A program made the translations under genes and the position numbers. 16,995 nucleotides of DNA from a virus (taxonomy: Duplodnaviria > Heunggongvirae > Uroviricota > Caudoviricetes), in the IMG/VR virus record IMGVR_UViG_2627853844_000004. One strand, 5' to 3'. This document shows positions 2,334-16,995 of this stretch, one piece after another (the stretch's first letter is position 1; each line of letters starts with the position of its first letter). Under the pieces are notes generated by a model that saw only the letters and a list, made by a program, of their open reading frames with translations, did no database searches and had not been told where the DNA came from.

Positions 2334-3077
2334 TTACTCCCTGACAGGGTTCGTAGGCCACTCAATATCAGGTGCAGTTGATGTATCAACACGGTTCAGC
2401 AACACCCGATATTTTTTCCAGGCTTCCAGCAATGAGGTTTCTTCCTCCGTTGCGATTTCCAGATCTACAGCATCCTGAAGTGGCGCAATATGCTCACTGG
2501 CTACCTGCATCAGGCTGTTTTTTGTTTCTTCCGCCTCCCGAATCCGGAACAGTTTTTCTGCTTCTGCATCTTTCACCCAGGCTGTACCGTTCCACTTCTG
2601 AAACTCCCCTTCCGGCGATAACCAGGTAACATTTTCCGGTAACGGACCGAGTTCAGAAATAAATAACGCGTCCCCTGACGCTACGTCATAAACCGTTTTA
2701 CCCCGATGATCTTCAACGAGATGCCACGATGACTCATCACTGTTGAAAACAGCCACGAAGCCAGCTGGAATAAGGGTGTTGCGCTGCTTATGCTCTATAA
2801 AGTAGGCATAAACACCCAGCAGCATTTTGGAATAACCGACACGGGCAGACTTCACCACATTCACCTCACGGATGTAGTCGCTGCCCATCGCATTCATGAT
2901 GGCCCGCTGAAAGGGCAGTGTTTCCCAGCGCCCTTCCTGGTATGCGGATTCTTTCGGGAGATAGTAATTAGCATCCGCCCATTCAACGGCGGTCTGTGGC
3001 TCCGGCCTGAACAGTGAGCGAAGCCCGGCGCGGACAAAATGCCGCAGCCTGTTAACCTGACTGTTCGATATATTCAC
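2334..3077 (-). pseudogene. In-frame deletion fusion: terminase large subunit (gpA) N-terminal 103 codons joined to Tfa C-terminal ~144 codons
   Basis: Residues 1-103 ([28 protein letters not shown]...[14 protein letters not shown]) match the lambda gpA N-terminus as I recall it. From residue 104 ([29 protein letters not shown]...[14 protein letters not shown]) it matches the lambda Tfa C-terminus. Junction lies between 2768 and 2769 (minus-strand ...cttatt|ccagctgg...). Corresponds to the K-12 aaaD/tfaD pseudogene pair by recollection. Confidence 0.85.
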
Positions 3078-3502
3078 TCAGCAACCCCGGTATCAGTTCA
3101 TCCAGCGCGGCTGCTTTGTTCATGGCTTTGATGATATCCCGTTTCAGGAAATCAACATGTCGGTTTTCCAGTTCCGGAAAACGCCGCTGCACCGACAGGG
3201 GGATCCCGTCGAGAATACTGGCAATTTCACCTGCGATCCGCGACAGCACGAAAGTACAGAATGCGGTTTCCACCACTTCAGCGGAGTCTCTGGCATTTTT
3301 CAGCTCCTGTGCATCGGCCTGCGCACGCGTAAGTCGATGGCGTTCGTACTCAATAGTCCCTGGCTGGAGATCTGTCTCGCTGGCCTGCAGCAGTTCTTCA
3401 ACCTCCCGGCGCAGCTTTTCGTTCTCAATTTCAGCATCCCTTTCGGCGGTGATGCTGCCAACTTACTGATTTAGTGTATGATGGTGTTTTTGAGGTGCTC
3501 CA

Positions 3503-3778
3503 GTGGCTTCTGTTTCTATCAGCTGTCCCTCCTGTTCAGCTACTGACGGGGTGGTGCGTAACGGCAAAAGCACCGCCGGACATCAGCGCTATCTCTGCTC
3601 TCACTGCCGTAAAACATGGCAACTGCAGTTCACTTACACCGCTTCTCAACCCGGTACGCACCAGAAAATCATTGATATGGCCATGAATGGCGTTGGATGC
3701 CGGGCAACAGCCCGCATTATGGGCGTTGGCCTCAACACGATTTTACGTCACTTAAAAAACTCAGGCCGCAGTCGGTAA
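3503..3778 (+). CDS. insA: IS1 InsA (transposition repressor)
   Basis: 91-aa [43 protein letters not shown]... with zinc-finger-like N-terminus typical of InsA. Confidence 0.95.
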
Positions 3779-4200
3779 CCTCGCGCATACAGCCGGGCAG
3801 TGACGTCATCGTCTGCGCGGAAATGGACGAACAGTGGGGCTATGTCGGGGCTAAATCGCGCCAGCGCTGGCTGTTTTACGCGTATGACAGTCTCCGGAAG
3901 ACGGTTGTTGCGCACGTATTCGGTGAACGCACTATGGCGACGCTGGGGCGTCTTATGAGCCTGCTGTCACCCTTTGACGTGGTGATATGGATGACGGATG
4001 GCTGGCCGCTGTATGAATCCCGCCTGAAGGGAAAGCTGCACGTAATCAGCAAGCGATATACGCAGCGAATTGAGCGGCATAACCTGAATCTGAGGCAGCA
4101 CCTGGCACGGCTGGGACGGAAGTCGCTGTCGTTCTCAAAATCGGTGGAGCTGCATGACAAAGTCATCGGGCATTATCTGAACATAAAACACTATCAATAA
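3697..4200 (+). CDS. insB: IS1 InsB frame (expressed as InsAB' transposase by -1 frameshift)
   Basis: 167-aa ORF in the -1 frame relative to insA. An A6C slippery run (aaaaaac, 3754-3760) lies in the overlap, which is the known IS1 frameshift motif. Confidence 0.9.
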
Positions 4201-4374
4201 GTTGGAGTCATTACCCCTTTCGGCATACCATTTTATGACGGCGGCAGAGTCATAAAGCACCTCATTACCCTTGCCACCGCCTCGCAGAACGGGCATTCCC
4301 TGTTCCTGCCAGTTCTGAATGGTACGGATACTCGCACCGAAAATGTCAGCCAGCTGCTTTTTGTTGACTTCCAT

Positions 4375-5613: not shown

Positions 5614-6024
5614 ATGGCTCAGGTTGCCATTTTTAAAGAAATATTCGATCAAGTGCGAAAAGATTTAAACTGTGAATTGTTTTATTCTGAACTAAAACGT
5701 CACAATGTCTCACATTATATTTACTATCTAGCCACAGATAATATTCACATTGTGTTAGAAAACGATAACACCGTGTTAATAAAAGGACTTAAAAAGGTTG
5801 TAAATGTTAAATTCTCAAGAAATACGCATCTTATAGAAACGTCCTATGATAGGTTGAAATCAAGAGAAATCACATTTCAGCAATACAGGGAAAATCTTGC
5901 TAAAGCAGGAGTTTTCCGATGGATTACAAATATCCACGAACATAAAAGATATTACTATACCTTTGATAATTCATTACTATTTACTGAGAGCATTCAGAAC
6001 ACTACACAAATCTTTCCACGCTAA
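5614..6024 (+). CDS. ybcV: Uncharacterised prophage protein, 136 aa (DUF1398 family by recollection)
   Basis: ORF track gives 177 aa from 5491. The ATG at 5614 ([11 protein letters not shown]...) has a GGAAGG Shine-Dalgarno about 9 nt upstream and gives 136 aa, the length I recall for YbcV. Stop codon taa at 6022-6024 abuts IS5. Confidence 0.65.
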
Positions 6025-7219
<1,195 letters not shown>

Positions 7220-7221
7220 CT

Positions 7222-7281
7222 AAAGCACTCGGTGTAAGCACTGATGACATCGTTGCTGTAGGTCTGGTTTACCAGTTCTAA
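7222..7281 (+). pseudogene. nmpC: 3'-terminal remnant (19 codons) of an outer-membrane porin gene
   Basis: Frame reads KALGVSTDDIVAVGLVYQF* directly after the IS5 right end. The ...VGLVYQF C-terminus is the conserved final beta-strand of OmpC/OmpF/NmpC-type porins. No porin body is present anywhere in the window. Confidence 0.75.
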
Positions 7282-7419
7282 TCTGATTACGAAAAAGATA
7301 TGTTGCGGGAGGCGTTGCCTCCCCAACATATAAGTGGCTCCCTCAAGCCACTTCCTTTAGAAGCACAACCTTGCTTCTAACTATATAAACCTTCTGTTAT
7401 ATATTACCCTTTATTTTTG

Positions 7420-7454
7420 GGGGCGTCTCAACGCCCCATTTTTAATAATTTTTA
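7420..7454 (+). terminator. Rho-independent terminator for the plus strand (porin gene 3' end)
   Basis: GGGGCGT (7420-7426), loop ctca, ACGCCCC (7431-7437), then atttttaataattttt. On the minus strand the hairpin is followed by an A-rich stretch, so it is not a minus-strand terminator. Confidence 0.6.
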
Positions 7455-7470
7455 GTAAACAATTGGCATA

Positions 7471-7854
7471 TTAATTAGAGTTATTAACAACGATATCCAT
7501 CTCTAACCGGATATCTAATGCCATTAACATCCCTTCAATTATGCCCTCAGCCTTCTGTAACCTTTTCCCGATATAACCATCAGAGCAGCAATGCTTACCT
7601 GCCAGTGACATGAATGTCATACCGACTACATAATAATCTACTAATAAATCGTGCAAATCGCTGTTGTTCTTTTTCAGACGGGCCATGCACCCGCAAATGA
7701 TCATCGCGTCATCGTCACAACATTGCGGGCGAGATTTTACTTTTGAAGTAATTAATCCCTTAAAACCGGCGGCAATGGACGACCAGGTCACATCTTCATG
7801 ATTATTAGCCGCCCACGCTCCCCAACGCTCAAGAACCATCTGAATATCACGCAT
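7471..7854 (-). CDS. quuD: Late-gene antiterminator Q (phage 82 type), 127 aa
   Basis: [29 protein letters not shown]...[18 protein letters not shown]... with a cysteine-rich zinc-binding segment. Length and position downstream of rusA/ylcG match K-12 QuuD by recollection. The ORF track start at 7869 is 5 codons further upstream. Confidence 0.75.
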
Positions 7855-7921
7855 CAACTTACTCCACAAAAATCAGACCAGAACGCCAATTACAAGCAAA
7901 AATCAACAAAACAGTATTAGT

Positions 7922-8062
7922 TGATTGTTATCTCTGACTTCATACTCCTGCTCCTGTCAGGGTTTTGGCGTAATTCTTCAGTATTCGGTAATCGGTCAAA
8001 ACAGAACCGGGGAAACGATATAAGCGCAGACGCCCCCAGCGGTGGCGAAGAAGTTCTGCCAT
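7922..8062 (-). CDS. ylcG: Small protein, 46 aa
   Basis: Hand translation of the minus strand from ATG at 8062 gives MAELLRHRWGRLRLYRFPGSVLTDYRILKNYAKTLTGAGV...*, 46 codons, starting 14 nt after the rusA stop. Below the ORF-track length cutoff. Symbol from recollection of a 46-aa gene between rusA and quuD. Confidence 0.5.
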
Positions 8063-8076
8063 ATTAAACTCAAACA

Positions 8077-8439
8077 TCATTCATTCCCCATTTCGGTGAT
8101 GGTCAGTTCCAGCCTCCCACCTTTGGTAACAGGCATCTTCACAACGCGGTAATCAACGACCTGAGCATCATCCAGCCAGAAACCTGCTTTAGTGAGTGCG
8201 TCAAAAGCGGCTTTTTGCAGATTATCCAGGTCACGGCGACGGCGATCCGGCATGTGGCACTCAATGCGGATTTTCACAGGCATAGCCAGGCCGATATCCA
8301 GCATTGCGTTTTTAATGATTCGGGCGACGTTATCGCGGTATGCCTGCCCCTCTGCGCTGACGTGCGTGCGCCCGCGATTATGGCGGTAATAGCGATTATT
8401 GCTCGGAGGCCAGGGTAATGTGATGCTGTAGGTATTCAC
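8077..8439 (-). CDS. rusA: Holliday junction resolvase RusA, 120 aa
   Basis: [54 protein letters not shown]...TITEMGNE matches RusA as recalled. Confidence 0.9.
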
Positions 8440-8726
8440 GCCTTAATAACCCCCTCTTTCAGCCAGATAACCTGTGTTCTCGCCATACCTTCCAGCGCGC
8501 ATTCTTTTGCATATCCAGCGTCAACAAAATGCGTGCGGCGGTCGATTTCGTCGTGGCAGGCAGAACATGCAATGGTGGCAATCAGGTCTGGCGGTTTCGT
8601 ACCGGTGCCGCACAATCCAGTCAGCCGGATATGTGCCAGTACAGACGTTTCAGGGTTGCCATTACATACGCCAGGGATTCTTACCTGGCATTCCCGACCA
8701 CGCGCTGCTTTTCTCAAATCAGCCAT
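8436..8726 (-). CDS. ybcO: Nin-region protein, 96 aa (DUF1364 family by recollection)
   Basis: ORF from [42 protein letters not shown]... Its stop overlaps the rusA start by 4 nt, suggesting translational coupling. The ORF track start at 8765 is 13 codons upstream. Confidence 0.7.
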
Positions 8727-8889
8727 GACTCCTCCTTGCTGCCAGTCGCAACCATTTTTTATCAACCAAGCTGGCGGTATATCCGAGCAGTGTTGGTATT
8801 TCGGATGGCTTCAGCTCAGGTTTACGCTTACGACGATTTGGTACTCTGTAGATGTGTCCGTTCATGACACGAATAAGCGGTGTAGCCAT
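8719..8889 (-). CDS. ninE: NinE-family protein, 56 aa
   Basis: Minus-strand ATG at 8889 preceded by [38 protein letters not shown]... The start shares one nucleotide with the ybcN stop (TAATG). Confidence 0.7.
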   Translation of the reverse strand: MATPLIRVMNGHIYRVPNRRKRKPELKPSEIPTLLGYTASLVDKKWLRLAARRSHG

Positions 8890-9344
8890 TACGCCTCCTG
8901 CTTGTCGCGCAGCAGCTGGAACTCGCAGCTCTGTGGAATAGTCAGGTGGCAACCAATATTCATCGCCCAGGCTTCAACCTTACACAGGAAGACATACATC
9001 TCTCCGGTATCAAGATCGGAGGTATGGCGTAACGACTGGATAGTGGTGATATCACCGGTTACGACATCAACCAGGTCTTTGGTTTCATAACCGAGATATG
9101 TGTGTTTGAGAGCATCTTTTACCCAAGCTGGAGTGGCGAACGTTTTACCCCTGCTGATGAGGTATTCACTGATTTCGCTGTACCACATGTGGCTGAGTGC
9201 ATTCTGGGAAAGACTGCGTTTCTCACGCCACGGTTTAAGCACCATGCGAAAGCATTTGCCCTCCTCCAGATAAGGCTGGATCTGCCGACCGATAGCGGTG
9301 AAGTTGCCGCGATGTAATTTGATGCCGTCTTGTGAGAGGTTCAC
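8889..9344 (-). CDS. ybcN: NinB-family recombination protein, 151 aa
   Basis: [58 protein letters not shown]... with GTG start at 9344 preceded by GGAGGGG. Position between ren/cargo and ninE matches lambda ninB. Confidence 0.75.
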
Positions 9345-9442
9345 GCTTCCCCTCCGCAGAGGTCAAACGCTAGATGCAAAGAATTGCAGGTGCATTTCTG
9401 CATCTGTGAAGGGAGAAGAGAGTTTGGATTGTATGTGCGCAT
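9341..9442 (-). CDS. ylcH: Small protein, 33 aa
   Basis: Hand translation from ATG at 9442 gives [38 protein letters not shown] Shine-Dalgarno about 5 nt upstream. Stop overlaps the ybcN GTG start (GTGA). Symbol from recollection of a 33-aa gene at this position. Confidence 0.45.
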
Positions 9443-9558
9443 AAACGTCCCCGTTTAGCGCAGAAGTCACCGGAGTTGTTCAGGCTCCGGTGACATAATT
9501 ATGCCGTGTTGATTTCCCAAAATCAAAATCGATAGAATTGCTCCTTCTTAAAACACTT

Positions 9559-10356
9559 TTACTCTCTGGAAGCTTTTCTTATCTCTCTTGGTGTTATATT
9601 AAAACGATTATGAAATCTTTCAGTAAAACGAGAAGGACACTTATAACCATTTTCTCTGGCAATCTCGCTTATAGGTTTTACCGTCGTTTGTATAGCAGAC
9701 AACGCATTATTTAACCTCACATCGTCCAGTATACTTTGGAAACTTACCCCCTCGCTTGCTAGACGGCGATGTAATGTAGAAACAGAAATGTAGAGATATC
9801 GAGCAACCTTGTTTGCTGTCCATTTTGTGCCGGGTTCGGATAGCAGCAGGTTATAACAACGACTTATCAATGATTGTTTACTATATGATAAAAGTAAATG
9901 ATTAACATGATTCACTCCTAACGAAAGTAGAACGCCCATTGCTAAGTGCTCCTGAATTTTAGTTGAGAAGCCTCGGGAAACAGATGTTTTTAGTTGCTCC
10001 CAACAATATATTAACTCAGGATTCTGAGGTAAAAAGAAACTTGTTTTGTTACGTATTTGATCAGTTACCGTATAAAGTTTTTGGAAACTCTCAATTAAAT
10101 CAATGGGTAAGTAAAGCATTTCTGCAAGATAAAGCCCTGCTTCAGGATAATTCTCAATATAAAATTCATAACCACAAGGAAATAATATTATTTGATTATT
10201 ATCAACAGTTAAAGTATGCGTCTCCCAATTGATAACTTTCTTTCCCTGACGGATACGACACAAAGCTGGCATAAGAGGCTTAACCCTATGAATCTCATGA
10301 TGTTTATGCATCCGTATTTCTTCGATCTTTAAGTTAGTCTTACCTCTTGCCAGCAT
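9559..10356 (-). CDS. ybcM: AraC-family transcriptional regulator, 265 aa
   Basis: C-terminal region ...[44 protein letters not shown]...[32 protein letters not shown] is a typical AraC helix-turn-helix pair. Visibly AT-rich codon usage. Confidence 0.8.
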
Positions 10357-10365
10357 ACTCTCACC

Positions 10366-10917
10366 CTACTTTATCTCATAAACTGGTGTTATCTCAGCGG
10401 TTGCGATTTTATTAGCATTAAGCATATAACCAACTAACGCTCCGCTGGAGTTAGAATCTACAGGAATCTTTTCAGTTTTTAGAGCCCATACTTTAAACTG
10501 GTAATGATGTGGTTTATCTCCTTTAGGAGGACATGCGCCACCAAACCCAGCATAGCCAAAATCATTTCGGCCTTGAACAGCACCAGTCGGCAGTTTTGTT
10601 CCATCACGTCTCCCTGCATCAACGGGCAAATATGTTACTGTTGCTGGAATATTAACAACAGTCCAATGCCACCAACCACTGCCTGTAGGTGCATCTGGAT
10701 CATATACAGTTACGGCAAAGCTTTTGGTACCTTCAGGAACACCAGACCAGGTTAATGAGGGCGATGTATTACCACCTTCACACCCAAATCCAGAAAAGAC
10801 ATGAGACGTTGTAAGTTGCTCTCCTGTTTTTATTTCATTACTAGTGACCTGAAATGCTGCAGCCTGCGCAGAAAATGTTATGAATGCCAATACAGTTGAA
10901 ACGATAAGTGTTTTCAT
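10366..10917 (-). CDS. ybcL: Secreted PEBP/RKIP-family protein, 183 aa
   Basis: N-terminal signal peptide MKTLIVSTVLAFITFSAQAAA. Mature region contains the PEBP-like ...YDPDAPTGSGWWHW... motif. AAGAGG Shine-Dalgarno 6 nt upstream of the ATG at 10917. Confidence 0.8.
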   Translation of the reverse strand: MKTLIVSTVLAFITFSAQAAAFQVTSNEIKTGEQLTTSHVFSGFGCEGGNTSPSLTWSGVPEGTKSFAVTVYDPDAPTGSGWWHWTVVNIPATVTYLPVDAGRRDGTKLPTGAVQGRNDFGYAGFGGACPPKGDKPHHYQFKVWALKTEKIPVDSNSSGALVGYMLNANKIATAEITPVYEIK

Positions 10918-11091
10918 AAAAACCTCTTTGTTATGACCTATCGTTATTTTATTTGATATTCCTTTATCTCATTATGCATAAAGGCGCAATGTTCATGCAA
11001 AAGCAATCACAATTGTACCCCCAACCCAATTATTTGCCACAATATACACAAAGCACATTGATACTATCTAAAAACTCTGCTTTATTATTAG

Positions 11092-11123
11092 TAACACCTA
11101 CGAAAGTCGGTGTTATTTTTTAA
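11092..11123 (+). terminator. Candidate rho-independent terminator on the plus strand
   Basis: taacacc (11092-11098), 10-nt loop, ggtgtta (11109-11115), followed by tttttt. No annotated plus-strand gene lies upstream; see findings. Confidence 0.4.
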
Positions 11124-11381
11124 CCTACCATTCAAAATACGTGACATACACCATTTTGCTCATAATAATTTGTCACGTATTTTCAGTATTTGAATCTGCG
11201 ACCAAGAGTTCTCACCTAACAAATGATTAAGATTGTATAGCTCATTTACTACCCCAATACAGCCGTACAAAACTCGCTTGTGGGAGCAAACAAAGTAATT
11301 ACCCATTAAGTTTCGTCAAAGATAATTAATTCTGTCTTGCACTTTATCACCATAGCATAACTTAAAATCCGAGATCATTAT

Positions 11382-12908
11382 TTAGAAATAAATCTCACCA
11401 TCAACCATATATTTGAGAGCACTTATCGCCTGCTGGGCGGATATTACTTTCATTAAAGGATAGTGTTTAAAAACAATGCCATTCATAAAATAGATATCAC
11501 AGGTTTTATTATCCGTATTAATTATGATTTTTTCGAATGTTTTATAGGCAAGTGTACGGCATAACTCTCGTCCATTTTTACTGGTTAAGTCAATAGCATA
11601 AAAATCACTGAATGAATTTACACCTTTACTCTTCAAAGTTTTCAATGATACCGAAGCCCTTCGTAATTCCTTATCTAATAGTCTTATTTTCTCTGCTATA
11701 GCGGTAACTTCAGGCGCGACAGACAATGCAACGATTAAATTATTAATTTTCATCTGAAGCTCAATAATTTTTAACTCTAAAGTTTCATTAGCATCTTTCT
11801 TGTTTTCAACTGGTTGAATTTTGCTACAATTAAAAAGCAATTCATTAATGATATTATAATCAACCAAATCTCTTTTTATTGATGGCCTGTCACATCGATG
11901 TAATCTTCTCATCGGACAAACATAATAGCCATGCAAACTTCCAGATACCGCATGAACAATCATGGTATTACCACAAGCCTCACACTTCATAACTGTTCGA
12001 AGTAGATTTATTAGCATAGGATTCTTGCTACTATTGCTAATACCAAAAGGTGCCAACCGAATTTCCTGTACAGCGTAAAACAAATCATCTGATATGACTC
12101 TGGGATAATAGCCAGCGATTTCACTTATCCCTTTCCCTCTTGCACGATATGAAGGTACGCAAATACCTATCAGAGCTTTATTCGCTAATAATTTTTCAAT
12201 TACAGAAGGTCCCCATGCACTTTCTTTTCCTGAGAAATTCTTTACAGCATGATCATTTAAATACTTGGCTATTGCATTCAATGAGCGCCTTTCCATCCTG
12301 AGTTTAAAAATTAGCTCAATAGTTTTCACCCTGTCGGGGTCTGGAACAAAAGCCGTTCTTTTGTCATCTAAGGAGAGCCATCTCGGACAAGACGCCGTCA
12401 TAATCGTACCTGATTCCAGTGCATCCTGCCGTTTTTTCTTCCATGATAATTTAACCCGACTTGACTTTATCTCGCTTTCTTCATTTGCCCTTTGTGCTAT
12501 AAGTATGGCTTTTATTAATGAATATGGCTCATTCAAAGAGTCAATATTATAGACTGTATTGTCGCAAAGAGTTATAACATCAATACCGTGATTCAAAATC
12601 AATTTCAGACGTTCAATCGCTTCACCGACTTTTTCTCTTGAAAGTCTGTCCAGACTTTCAACTAACAATGTAGTTCCTGGCAATATATAACCATGCTCTA
12701 TAGCATCTAAAAATTCCGAAAAAGCTCCTGATTGTGCATGCTTTCCTTTGAATGCACTTAATCCTAAATCTTCATATGTTATGGTATCAAGATAATAATC
12801 ACTATTTACCTTTAACCATTCAGCAATAAGTCTTCTCTGTCGGTTTAATGAGTCGCCAGACATCTGACCTGGTGATGAAAATCGCATATATGCTATGGCT
12901 TTTTTCAT
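11382..12908 (-). CDS. ybcK: Large serine recombinase, 508 aa
   Basis: N-terminus MKKAIAYMRFSSPGQ... carries the catalytic-serine motif context of resolvase/invertase-type recombinases, and the protein has the long C-terminal extension of large serine recombinases. Very AT-rich gene. Confidence 0.8.
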   Translation of the reverse strand: MKKAIAYMRFSSPGQMSGDSLNRQRRLIAEWLKVNSDYYLDTITYEDLGLSAFKGKHAQSGAFSEFLDAIEHGYILPGTTLLVESLDRLSREKVGEAIERLKLILNHGIDVITLCDNTVYNIDSLNEPYSLIKAILIAQRANEESEIKSSRVKLSWKKKRQDALESGTIMTASCPRWLSLDDKRTAFVPDPDRVKTIELIFKLRMERRSLNAIAKYLNDHAVKNFSGKESAWGPSVIEKLLANKALIGICVPSYRARGKGISEIAGYYPRVISDDLFYAVQEIRLAPFGISNSSKNPMLINLLRTVMKCEACGNTMIVHAVSGSLHGYYVCPMRRLHRCDRPSIKRDLVDYNIINELLFNCSKIQPVENKKDANETLELKIIELQMKINNLIVALSVAPEVTAIAEKIRLLDKELRRASVSLKTLKSKGVNSFSDFYAIDLTSKNGRELCRTLAYKTFEKIIINTDNKTCDIYFMNGIVFKHYPLMKVISAQQAISALKYMVDGEIYF

Positions 12909-13090
12909 GGTGACACCTGCTAACGTATGCTTTTATAAACCTTAGTGGTGGGATATAATTTTTGTTTATTTTTTATTTAAAAAGACAATTAAGGTCACAT
13001 TATCTTGAATATACAACAATAATCGTATTGCAATTTTCTTACGCCATAATCTTGAAAGCACAAAAGAATACATAAAAAATAAAGACATTA

Positions 13091-13132
13091 ACAAAAAGCA
13101 TAAAACGAGGCTCATATAAATATAAGAGCCTC
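13091..13132 (-). terminator. Rho-independent terminator of emrE
   Basis: gaggctc (13107-13113) and gagcctc (13126-13132) form a 7-bp stem. On the minus strand it is followed by gttttatgctttttgt. Lies about 30 nt downstream of the emrE stop. Confidence 0.6.
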
Positions 13133-13162
13133 CATATTTTAGTCGTTTAGAAACAAATTATT

Positions 13163-13495
13163 TTAATGTGGTGTGCTTCGTGACAATAAATTAATAATCA
13201 ACACACCGGCACAAATCAACATCATGCCTATAATGGCTGGCAGGTCCAGCCGTTGGCCGAAAAATCCCCATGACAGTAAGCTAATCAGGACAATACCGAC
13301 TCCTGACCAGATAGCATAAGCAATCCCTGTAGGAATATAAGCCAGCGTCTGAGCTAATAACCAGAATGATGCACAATAACAAATAATTGTACCAACAGAT
13401 GGCCATAACCGTGTAAAACCTTCTGAAAACTTCATTAAGGTTGTACCAATGACCTCTGCAAGTATTGCACCACCAAGATAAATATAAGGGTTCAT
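13163..13495 (-). CDS. emrE: Small multidrug resistance (SMR) efflux transporter, 110 aa
   Basis: From the ATG at 13495: MNPYIYLGGAILAEVIGTTLMKFSEGFTRLWPSVGTIICYCASFWLLAQTLAYIPTGIAYAIWSGVGIVLISLLSWGFFGQRLDLPAIIGMMLICAGVLIINLLSRSTPH, four hydrophobic helices, matching EmrE as recalled. The ORF track extends 18 codons upstream. Confidence 0.9.
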   Translation of the reverse strand: MNPYIYLGGAILAEVIGTTLMKFSEGFTRLWPSVGTIICYCASFWLLAQTLAYIPTGIAYAIWSGVGIVLISLLSWGFFGQRLDLPAIIGMMLICAGVLIINLLSRSTPH

Positions 13496-13805
13496 AGCAT
13501 ATTCTTTCCTGTTCAAACTGGAGAGAATTGTACTACAGTTTGAACTCAACTCACCTGTTTCATCATTGTGTTCCCATTGATGTTCTTTTATATACCCTCA
13601 ATACCCGTTTCATCGCGGCACTCTGGCGACACTCCTTAAAAATCAGATTCGTGCTCACCTTTCCTTCCCATTCTTCTCTGGTAGCGAACCGGTAATACAC
13701 CGTTCGCCAGACCTTACCATCAACGACCAGGATTCCTGCCCGCGCCATTTTAGCCGCAGCCTGATTTATGCTGGTTGATCCTACCCACGTAATATGGACA
13801 CAGGC

Positions 13806-14672
13806 CTAAGCGAGGTTCTTGTTTTCAAATTGTTCCGGACTGAGGCCGCCACACCAACTGTGCCGCCGCCACCGATTGTAATCACATTCGATATAATTAA
13901 ACACCGTTGCCCGCATTATTTCCCGGCTGATAAAGTGTTCTCCATGGATACATTCCACTTTCAGCGAATGAAAGAAGCTTTCCACGCAGGCATTATCGTA
14001 GCAGCAACCTTTTGCGCTCATACTTCCACGCAGATTATGCCGCTTCAGTTGCGCCTGATAATCTGCTGAACAGTACTGGCCTCCACGGTCCGTGTGAACG
14101 ATAACGTTCCGGGGCCTCTTACGCCGCCACAGCGCCATCTGCAGGGCATCGCAGGCCAGTTGCGCCGTCATGCGTGGCGACATTGACCAGCCAATAACGG
14201 CACGTGACCACAGGTCAATGACCACTGCCAGATACAGCCAGCCTTCATCTGTACGTAAGTACGTGATGTCTCCTGCCCACTTCTGGTTCGGGCCACTGGC
14301 GTAAAAATCCTGCTCCAACAGATTTTCTGACACAGGCAGGCCGTGTGCGCGGTAGCTGACCGGGCTGAACTTCCGGGAGGCCTTTGCCCTCAGTCCCTGA
14401 CGGCGCAGGCTTGCCGCCACGGTTTTTACGTTAAAGGGGTAACCCTGAGCACGCAGTTCATCCGTCAGGCGTGGGGCACCGTAACGCTGTTTTGACCGGG
14501 TAAAAGCCGCGAGGACAACGCTGTCGCAGTGTTGGCGGAACTGCTGACGCGTGCTTATCCTTGTCCGCCGCTGACACCACGTATACCAGCCGCTGCGGGC
14601 CACCCGGAGCACGCGGCACATTGCTTTGATGCTGAACTCAGCCTGATGTTTTTCAATAAAGACATACTTCAT
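13806..14672 (-). CDS. insF: IS3 OrfB (DDE transposase catalytic domain; expressed as OrfAB by -1 frameshift)
   Basis: 288-aa ORF overlapping orfA by 4 nt. Contains the integrase-core pattern ...[33 protein letters not shown]... Confidence 0.95.
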
Positions 14673-14977
14673 TTCAGGCGCTTCGCGAAGTATGTCGCGG
14701 CCTTTTGGAGGATAGCCAGCTCTTCATCCCGTTCTGCCAGCTGGCGTTTGAGACGTGCAATCTCGGTAGACATCTCCAGTTCACGTTCAGAAGACGTCTG
14801 CTGATTTTGCTGTTTACTGCGCCAGTTGTAGAGTTGTGATTCATACAGGCTGAGTTCACGGGCTGCGGCAGTAACACCGATGCGTTCAGCAAGCTTCAGG
14901 GCTTCACTGCGAAATTCAGGCGAATGCTGTTTACGGGGTTTTTTACTGGTTGATACTGTTTTTGTCATGTGAGTCAC
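14669..14977 (-). CDS. insE: IS3 OrfA (helix-turn-helix transposase N-terminal protein)
   Basis: 102-aa [63 protein letters not shown]... with leucine-zipper-like C-terminus. Confidence 0.95.
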
Positions 14978-15122
14978 CTCTGACTGAGAGTTTACTCACT
15001 TAGCCGCGTGTCCACTATTGCTGGGTAAGATCAGATTACGGTTGCGCCTGTTACCGCGGCAACGTCCTGTGCACAGAAGCTCTTATGCGTCCCCAGGTAA
15101 TGAATAATTGCCTCTTTGCCCG

Positions 15123-15433
15123 TCATACACTTGCTCCTTTCAGTCCGAACTTAGCTTTAATTTCTGCGATCTTCGCCAGAGCCTGTGCACGATTTAGAGG
15201 TCTACCGCCCATAACAGGAAGTTGTTTTACTGGTTCAGGTATCGTCTCACCACGGTTAATTCGCGCTGTCATACAGGTCAGTTCATCGGCAGCCTTGCGC
15301 CGTAATTCCGCGTCAGCCAGCGCATTGGCCCGCATGTTCTGGTACAAGTTGGTAACCAACCAGTAATGCGCGTTCGATTTCCACGGATAAGACTCTGCAT
15401 CCGGATACAGGCCACGCTTCCGGCAATACTCGT
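15123..15433 (-). pseudogene. peaD: C-terminal remnant (~103 codons) of a lambda P-type replication protein
   Basis: Minus-strand frame reads ...[105 protein letters not shown], matching the lambda P C-terminus as recalled. No N-terminal part and no O gene are present. Confidence 0.8.
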
Positions 15434-15712
15434 ACCTCCCGGGATTTCATGAAATTCCGGCTCGGTGGTTTCGAGGCAATAAAATCGGCTTACATGGCCC
15501 AGGTGCAGTACAGCATGTGGGTGACGCGAAAAGATGCCTGGTACTTTGCCAACTATGACCCGCGCATGAAGCGTGAAGGCCTGCATTATGTCGTGATTGA
15601 GCGGAATGAAAAGTACATGGCGAGTTTTGACGAGATGGTGCCGGAGTTCATCGAAAAAATGGACGAGGCACTGGCTGAAATTGGTTTTGTATTTGGGGAG
15701 CAATGGCGATGA
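15434..15712 (+). pseudogene. exoD: C-terminal remnant (~92 codons) of lambda-type exonuclease Exo
   Basis: Plus-strand frame ...[92 protein letters not shown] matches the lambda Exo C-terminus as recalled. Homology begins abruptly near 15434. Confidence 0.8.
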
Positions 15713-15831
15713 CGCATCCTCACGATAATATCCGGGTACCTCACAACACGGCAAGCCTGCATTGCGGCGCTTCAGTCTCCGCTGCATACTGTCCAGGTGA
15801 GCGCGGGTGATGGCATAACAGAGGAAAGAAA

Positions 15832-16995
15832 ATGTCACTCTTCCGCAGAAATGAAATATGGTATGCCTCGTATTCGCTCCCGGGCGGGAAACGAATTAAG
15901 GAATCTCTTGGCACAAAGGACAAACGGCAAGCTCAGGAGTTGCACGACAAGCGAAAAGCAGAACTCTGGCGAGTAGAAAAGCTAGGGGATTTACCTGATG
16001 TCACTTTTGAAGAGGCCTGCCTAAGATGGCTTGAGGAAAAAGCTGATAAAAAATCTCTCGATTCAGATAAAAGCCGGATTGAGTTCTGGCTTGAACATTT
16101 TGAGGGTATAAGGCTTAAAGATATCTCGGAGGCAAAGATTTACTCTGCTGTAAGCAGAATGCATAACAGAAAGACGAAAGAAATATGGAAACAGAAAGTT
16201 CAGGCCGCCATCAGGAAAGGTAAAGAACTGCCTGTTTATGAACCAAAGCCAGTATCAACTCAGACAAAGGCAAAGCATCTTGCCATGATAAAGGCCATTC
16301 TCCGTGCTGCAGAACGCGACTGGAAGTGGCTGGAAAAAGCGCCTGTCATCAAGATACCAGCGGTCAGAAACAAGCGAGTCAGATGGCTGGAAAAGGAGGA
16401 AGCAAAACGCCTTATTGATGAGTGCCCCGAACCACTGAAATCTGTCGTCAAGTTTGCGCTGGCAACTGGTCTGAGAAAGTCGAACATCATAAATCTGGAA
16501 TGGCAACAAATCGACATGCAGCGACGAGTTGCCTGGGTGAATCCAGAAGAGAGCAAATCAAACCGCGCCATTGGTGTGGCGCTGAACGATACCGCCTGTA
16601 AAGTGTTGCGTGATCAAATAGGCAAGCATCACAAATGGGTGTTTGTACATACCAAGGCGGCTAAGCGAGCAGATGGAACATCAACGCCTGCGGTCAGGAA
16701 GATGCGCATCGACAGCAAGACATCATGGCTATCAGCTTGTCGTCGTGCAGGAATTGAAGATTTCCGTTTCCATGACCTCAGACACACCTGGGCAAGCTGG
16801 CTGATTCAGTCAGGCGTCCCATTATCAGTGCTTCAGGAAATGGGCGGATGGGAGTCCATAGAAATGGTTCGTAGGTATGCTCACCTTGCGCCTAATCATT
16901 TGACAGAGCATGCGAGGAAAATAGACGACATTTTTGGTGATAATGTCCCAAATATGTCCCACTCTGAAATTATGGAGGATATAAAGAAGGCGTAA
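15832..16995 (+). CDS. intD: Tyrosine site-specific integrase, complete 387 aa
   Basis: Complete ORF with AGGAAAG Shine-Dalgarno. C-terminal catalytic region ...[44 protein letters not shown] contains the R...HxxR...Y signature of tyrosine recombinases. Symbol from recollection of the 387-aa DLP12 integrase; a closely related paralog (intS) cannot be excluded by memory alone. Confidence 0.85.

Follow-up and report, generated by a model that had tools for sequence, protein, structure and literature searches.

Deletion joints and the missing early region of DLP12, a cryptic lambdoid prophage of Escherichia coli K-12

The early region of the DLP12 prophage was in all probability (we put the figure at about 93%) lost by illegitimate deletion from a complete ancestral prophage integrated at argU, with the integrase gene being kept. 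The loss left one joint (J1) at which a fragment of the replication gene P meets a fragment of the exonuclease gene exo, and a second joint (J2) at which the sequence just beyond exo runs into the middle of xis. J1 as such is already known, in that RefSeq annotates both of the fragments that meet there as pseudogenes; it is a real, precisely placed and ordinary joint. With repressor, replication origin and excisionase function lost and the integrase kept, DLP12 is a textbook ‘grounded’ prophage, for which J1 can serve as a precisely mapped reference point.

The DNA analysed is a stretch of 16,995 nucleotides, referred to here as the window, which on the evidence of its sequence is DLP12, the cryptic lambdoid prophage of E. 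coli K-12. Nucleotide comparison showed that K-12 genomes match positions 14990–15840 at 100% identity, and positions 6021–16995 are 100% identical to and collinear with K-12 strain LTE800. The gene order at the K-12 locus (intD, exo', P', ren::IS3, emrE, ybcK) also matches, as does the order in the RefSeq/PGAP annotation (ren in two pieces around IS3, then the P fragment, the exonuclease fragment and intD). In every matching genome a tRNA-Arg gene lies 16 nt past intD, the window itself stopping at the intD stop codon. The window and the DLP12 of standard K-12 agree in sequence, in order and in the IS3 within ren, and presumably also in having the integrase next to argU; nothing differs between them at the joint, and no result argues against the identification. 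We take the pseudogenes concerned to be those named exoD (formerly ybcC), peaD, renD and xisD, the integrase gene being intD. DLP12 was reportedly characterised by Lindsey, Mullin and Walker in J Bacteriol in 1989. That paper is cited for DLP12 in two later articles (PMC6379469; PMC7918800). The substrain represented by the window differs from standard K-12 in having an additional IS5-adjacent 3.4-kb deletion of the lysis genes, by which the nmpC remnant, essD, rrrD, rzpD and bor are lost. It also has an IS1 within nohD, bordered by a 9–10-bp duplication. The IS5-adjacent deletion is found in only 12 complete genomes (RR1, HB101, AB1157, ER2796/ER3413, ET12567, dam/dcm strains) and, because the window carries this deletion together with the IS1, we assign it to the AB1157/HB101/RR1/ER2796 group of K-12 derivatives. 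The coordinates of the features discussed are collected in Table 1.

Table 1. Positions in the window of the joints, gene fragments, insertion sequences and signals discussed in the text.
Feature	Position	Strand	Evidence or remarks
Terminase/tail-fibre-assembly joint	2770-2772		3-bp microhomology ATA
IS1 (InsA/InsB-sized ORFs)	~3448-4214		767-bp insert absent from K-12 strain LTE800; inside nohD
IS5-adjacent deletion	6021-6024		3394 bp missing vs standard K-12; IS5 joined directly to ybcV
ybcK, 508-aa large serine recombinase	11382-12908	-	Resolvase, Recombinase, Zn_ribbon_recom
ren 3' part, pseudogene	13563-13781	-	PGAP ‘protein ren, missing N-terminus’; tblastn lambda Ren residues 25-92, 82% identical
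IS3, 1258 bp, inserted in ren	13776-15033	-	annotated transposase; IS3 ends read
ren 5' part	15037-15126	-	PGAP; tblastn lambda Ren residues 1-30, 90% identical
P C-terminal fragment, residues 131-233 + stop	15123-15434	-	PGAP, tblastn, Pfam
Joint J1	15433-15434	no strand	TA common to P and exo sides; 2-bp microhomology; ungapped three-way comparisons
Exonuclease C-terminal fragment, residues 135-226 + stop	15434-15712	+	PGAP, tblastn, Pfam
Joint J2	15737-15738	no strand	shared TA; exo stop + 26 nt (orf60a/DUF1317 start) joined to mid-xis
xis remnant, from residue 45 of 123-aa P22-type Xis	15737-15976	+	tblastn 97.5% to ev243 xis ORF
Weak promoter-like candidate TTGCGG, 17-nt spacer, CATACT	15762-15790	+	position-weight score 5.2; indistinguishable from background
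Shine-Dalgarno GAGGA	15821-15825	+	6 nt before intD ATG; sequence
intD, intact tyrosine integrase, 387 aa	15832-16995	+	Pfam

The breakpoint of J1 was mapped with four independent intact references (phages SfI, ev243 and lambda and the prophage of E. coli strain 1428). BLAST comparison with these references showed that the P/ren homology on the minus strand spans 15036–15434 (100% identity to SfI and to strain 1428, 96% to ev243 and 92% to lambda) and that the exo homology on the plus strand spans 15433–15738 (97–98% identity). A preliminary description of this DNA had the two homologies meeting near 15433/15434, which alignment to lambda and the three other references confirms to the base, and its view that this is a deletion joint is supported. 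The same description called the arrangement head-to-head in its title and tail-to-tail in its text; as the fragments are divergent (P being encoded by the minus strand and exo by the plus strand) and it is their truncated 5' ends that abut, the first term is the right one and the second is not. On the P side, residues 131–233 of lambda P align at 15434–15126 with 96% identity, and those of strain 1428 P with 100% (tblastn). The fragment lacks its own start codon, and its reading frame meets a stop four codons past J1; the Phage_lambda_P family (PF06992) is matched with 65.9 bits against a cut-off of 26 at profile positions 96–162 of 162, that is, by a C-terminal fragment only. On the other side, the retained Exo residues are encoded at 15434–15709, lambda exo is matched at 97% DNA identity from its codon 135 onward, and the YqaJ family (PF09588) is matched with 22.9 bits (cut-off 22) at profile positions 117–149 of 150 only. 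The N-terminal 134 residues of Exo, within which the catalytic residues of the lambda enzyme (Asp109, Glu129 and Lys131) lie, are missing. A tblastn match that stretched the exo fragment back to residue 108 falls outside the DNA homology and was discarded as spurious. The RefSeq/PGAP labels at the same coordinates are ‘replication protein P, missing N-terminus’ and ‘exonuclease, missing N-terminus’, both as pseudogenes. An 87-codon ORF (15449–15712) opens at an internal ATG of the exo fragment and has no obvious Shine-Dalgarno sequence.

Compared with strain 1428, which has the same integrase next to argU and a full P gene, 5895 bp are missing at J1. The genes that strain 1428 carries from P to exo encode an O-type replication protein, a YdaT-domain protein, a Cro/YdaS-type regulator, an S24-HTH repressor, Kil, Gam and Bet, the repressor, Cro, O and P identities being backed by Pfam. 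Compared with lambda the gap is about 8.35 kb and takes in the 5' part of exo, bet, gam, kil, cIII, N, rexAB, cI, cro, cII, O with the origin, and the 5' part of P. The early proteins of lambda, ev243 and strain 1428 gave no tblastn match anywhere in the window, and word-7 blastn with the DNA missing at the gap, taken from lambda, ev243, SfI and strain 1428, likewise matched nothing in the whole window (all E values 0.05 or higher). These searches bear out the earlier statement that repressor, cro, N and O are absent and extend it to cII/YdaT, for the lambda-type and the cognate type of each. A remnant of a repressor or operator within 15350–15450, which would have told against the earlier interpretation, was looked for and none was found: every base of that interval falls in P or exo homology, so it contains no insert, and since the two homologies fully cover 15036–15738 no operator remnant can be accommodated at J1. 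The repressor, cro and operators that characterise a repressor-controlled (inducible) lambdoid prophage are thus lacking in the window and, being without repressor, operators, N, origin/O and intact P, DLP12 is unable to replicate autonomously or to be induced as a phage.

The preliminary description was largely right in its interpretation, with the orientation in its text and probably also the promoter source that it named as its errors; it was however incomplete, as it overlooked J2. Here 1357 bp are missing when compared with either ev243 or strain 1428, comprising the DUF1317 and DUF1382 genes, a small ORF, the TraR/DksA and DUF4222 genes and the first 44 codons of xis. The remnant of xis overlaps the start of intD, and J2 leaves 95 nt of sequence upstream of intD. 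Full-length Xis has an HTH_17 domain at residues 6–36 (Pfam); the remnant lacks it and matches no family, and this loss of the Xis helix-turn-helix matters more for the control of excision than does the loss of the repressor. Two other forms of J2 have the same left endpoint as that of K-12: in strain TB06053 another 41 nt of xis are retained, whereas in strain 2 HS-C a further 132 bp are lost, into codon 13 of int.

The ancestor that we envisage would have been a complete argU-integrated lambdoid prophage with the order int-xis-(small genes)-exo-bet-gam-kil-repressor-cro-YdaT-O-P-ren. A RecA-independent illegitimate deletion would have joined the TA in codon 131 of P to the TA at codons 134/135 of exo, giving two divergent, promoter-less, 5'-truncated gene fragments, while a second, short deletion (J2) would have taken the genes from exo to xis together with the DNA-binding domain of Xis. 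Int has stayed intact and supports only rare excision. Illegitimate recombination independent of RecA fits because there is no IS, no target duplication and no shared recognition sequence, only a 2-bp microhomology, and we infer the mechanism solely from that microhomology. The collinear flanks, the short shared sequence and the freedom of J1 from any mobile element or target duplication are those of a microhomology-mediated illegitimate deletion. Site-specific recombination (Int/att or serine recombinase) does not describe the joint, the parental sites sharing only TA and the discarded halves being without a motif.

Intact prophages and phages of the argU type (strain 1428; ev243, genus Nesevirus) are very close to DLP12 (99.7–99.8% identity in int, 96–100% in P and 97–98% in exo) and agree with it in gene order to either side of the gap, but they keep what DLP12 has lost, namely xis, the small genes, bet to O and full-length P (5.9–8.3 kb, plus 1.36 kb between exo and xis). 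Among 5426 complete E. coli genomes an intact early region (at least 80% of its length) lies beside this integrase in 664, and J1 is contiguous in 306. There are also decayed DLP12-type alleles that, like DLP12, have lost the block from repressor to O, with the leftovers of the rightward (P/ren) and the leftward (exo/bet/gam) operon abutting divergently, and that usually keep int, but their endpoints differ from those of K-12. With the retained fragment lengths given in nt, these joints are P(606)/exo(675) in LD27-1 and six or more further natural isolates, P(606)/bet(204) in E200086, P(54)/gam(112) in TB06053, P(246)/dam fragment in E. coli B, P(570)/upstream of gam in SC455, ren/exo in 200112 and unrelated DNA/bet(201) in 2 HS-C (loci L002, L006, L008, L009, L012, L013, L014 and L018 were compared with L011, that of strain 1428). 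Strain VTB97585v, in which a segment has been replaced relative to strain 1428 with no clean deletion, was not counted as a joint. Because the scars differ between strains, the repressor-to-O block must have been lost repeatedly and independently, and repeated loss of this block with differing endpoints fits selection against lethal early functions once the lytic cycle cannot be completed.

The strains of the LD27-1 type bear on the history of J1 itself. Their flanks are 100% identical to those of K-12 and they have the same J2 and the same IntD protein, with no IS3 in ren; K-12 differs from LD27-1 by a further 668 bp spanning the LD27-1 joint. We rather favour the reading that J1 of K-12 is a secondary deletion of 668 bp over an older P606/exo675 scar, in which case the immunity region would have been removed by an event other than the one that left J1. 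The preliminary description had regarded J1 as the scar of the removal of the immunity and replication-initiation region; the genes are indeed gone, but given the existence of the older LD27-1-type joint it was probably not J1 itself that removed them. Counting events does not by itself decide between one step and two, as both need two events. A single large deletion, of about 5.9 kb relative to strain 1428 or about 8.3 kb relative to lambda and independent of the LD27-1 joint, is possible but rather unlikely. Both endpoints of J1 do fall in sequence found in intact relatives, and large deletions are evidently frequent, as there are several clearly independent ones in other strains (the TB06053, E. 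coli B and SC455 joints above). However, the LD27-1-type strains and K-12 share J2, the exo allele (100% over a 900-nt test query) and the IntD protein accession, and the J2 genomes without J1 that were examined (seven of the LD27-1 type among the matches listed, and TB06053) all carry another deletion joint. J2, in the K-12 form or the longer TB06053 form, occurs in 316 genomes, 306 of them with J1; as J2 genomes thus have J1 or, where examined, another deletion joint, there is little room for an ancestor that combined J2 with an intact early region.

Both parental sequences were readable for twelve joints, and these were compared for the nucleotides at which they cross. Eight cross within a microhomology that contains TA (J1 of K-12, of LD27-1 and of E200086; J2 of K-12, of TB06053 and of 2 HS-C; the terminase/tail-fibre-assembly joint; and an int-truncating joint of ETEC4075); of the other four, two have AA at the crossover and two lack any microhomology. 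The terminase joint fuses what is left of the terminase large subunit (an N-terminal part, 100% identical to lambda A) to a tail-fibre-assembly fragment, and the head and tail genes are all gone. In the region as a whole TA accounts for 4.3% of dinucleotides and GTA for about 1.2% of trinucleotides; GTA is often found at the end of the retained flank. Reuse with different partners is seen for three endpoints, numbered as in the locus of strain 1428 (7434 with three, 1528/1530 with two and 6536 with two). This pattern is what might be left by a sequence-preferring enzyme, either a recombinase or a topoisomerase, acting with a 2-nt stagger at TA; YbcK, with its three recombinase-type Pfam domains, or processed cleavage by a type II topoisomerase would be examples. 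Cleavage by quinolone-trapped gyrase falls before G and has a 4-bp stagger, in keeping with what G-TA-C would require (PMC6379681). We nevertheless consider it unlikely that such an enzyme made the joints. The excess of TA was spotted post hoc, and of two prospective tests ETEC4075 did cross at TA but E. coli B crosses at AA. Moreover, two joints are without microhomology, the discarded half-sites have no common motif, and ybcK is absent from some strains that have such joints. The reuse of endpoints also means that the joint events are not independent. More doubtful still is the wider proposal that the decay of argU prophages is non-random, with crossing at TA (often G-TA-C) and reused endpoints pointing to a specific break-and-join activity of 2-nt stagger, a recombinase or topoisomerase, that drives domestication. 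Literature searches on DLP12 pseudogene names and on TA-biased deletion endpoints returned nothing relevant; of these results, only the leaning of the joints toward TA and the repeated use of endpoints would merit follow-up, should a larger set bear them out.

The IS3 in ren, the mobile element nearest to J1, lies 398 bp from it, its flanking triplets (GGT/GAT) forming an imperfect 3-bp target duplication, and ren is unbroken in TB06053, LD27-1, E. coli B and strain 1428. An IS5-adjacent deletion did occur elsewhere in the window, but that IS3 caused J1 by adjacent deletion is extremely improbable and we reject it, because such a deletion leaves the IS at the joint whereas here the 398 bp in between are collinear ren/P sequence, because IS3 retains its triplets on both sides, and because the LD27-1-type strains have the early region deleted with no IS3 in ren.

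Returning to what has been spared, IntD matches Phage_integrase (PF00589) with 160 bits over profile positions 1–171 of 172 and differs from the integrase of strain 1428 by one amino acid and from that of phage ev243 by two. The integrase is therefore, as first described, intact together with its Shine-Dalgarno sequence, being of full length and near-identical to the integrases of intact phages. Its expression had been attributed to host or read-through promoters, and the search for promoters reading toward intD that this called for has been run. Scanning the plus strand of 14900–15860 turned up no strong sigma-70 promoter (by tool scan, and with position-weight scores at background level), and a tool scan gave no terminator or strong sigma-70 site between IS3 and intD. 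The candidate listed in Table 1, which sits in the 95 nt of phage-derived sequence upstream of intD, is one of several at background level; the best position-weight score in the scanned segment was 6.76, and 163 plus-strand sites in the window score at least as high. Nor was there a convincing LexA box near exoD/intD (CTGT-N8-ACAG with one mismatch gave 5 matches against 5.1 expected). Read-in from a host promoter appears unlikely, since the DNA upstream on that strand is all prophage or IS3 with genes on the opposite strand and int is transcribed outward toward argU.

The view that DLP12 cannot be regulated also needs qualification. It holds for control as a lambdoid prophage, the repressor and operators being gone, but is too strong as a general statement because excision and induction of exoD mRNA are both reported in the literature, so that the region is not silent. 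Basal excision of DLP12 occurs in fewer than 1 per 100,000 cells (PMC3105296), and on induction of a DNase toxin exoD mRNA rises within 5 min and excision of DLP12 increases about 40-fold (PMC12607911). This frequency and inducibility are consistent with an active integrase. Overexpression of ybcC together with intD is reported to induce DLP12 excision (PMC12607911, citing Wang et al., 2009). A role for ybcC in excision is odd for a fragment that is without the nuclease active site.

Two further observations concern other parts of the window. The ybcK gene belongs to a variable island between ren and ybcN, along with emrE, ylcJ, ybcL and ybcM; elsewhere the cargo of this island consists of DUF4041/HD-domain genes (2 HS-C) or of other small ORFs (TB06053 and 200112). 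At the far end of the window an AT-rich ORF of 249 aa occupies positions 1–750 on the minus strand; its first 520 bp are 99.8% identical to a ‘transcriptional regulator’ gene of phages Kati and PhiR68_2, and we take it to be, probably, appY.
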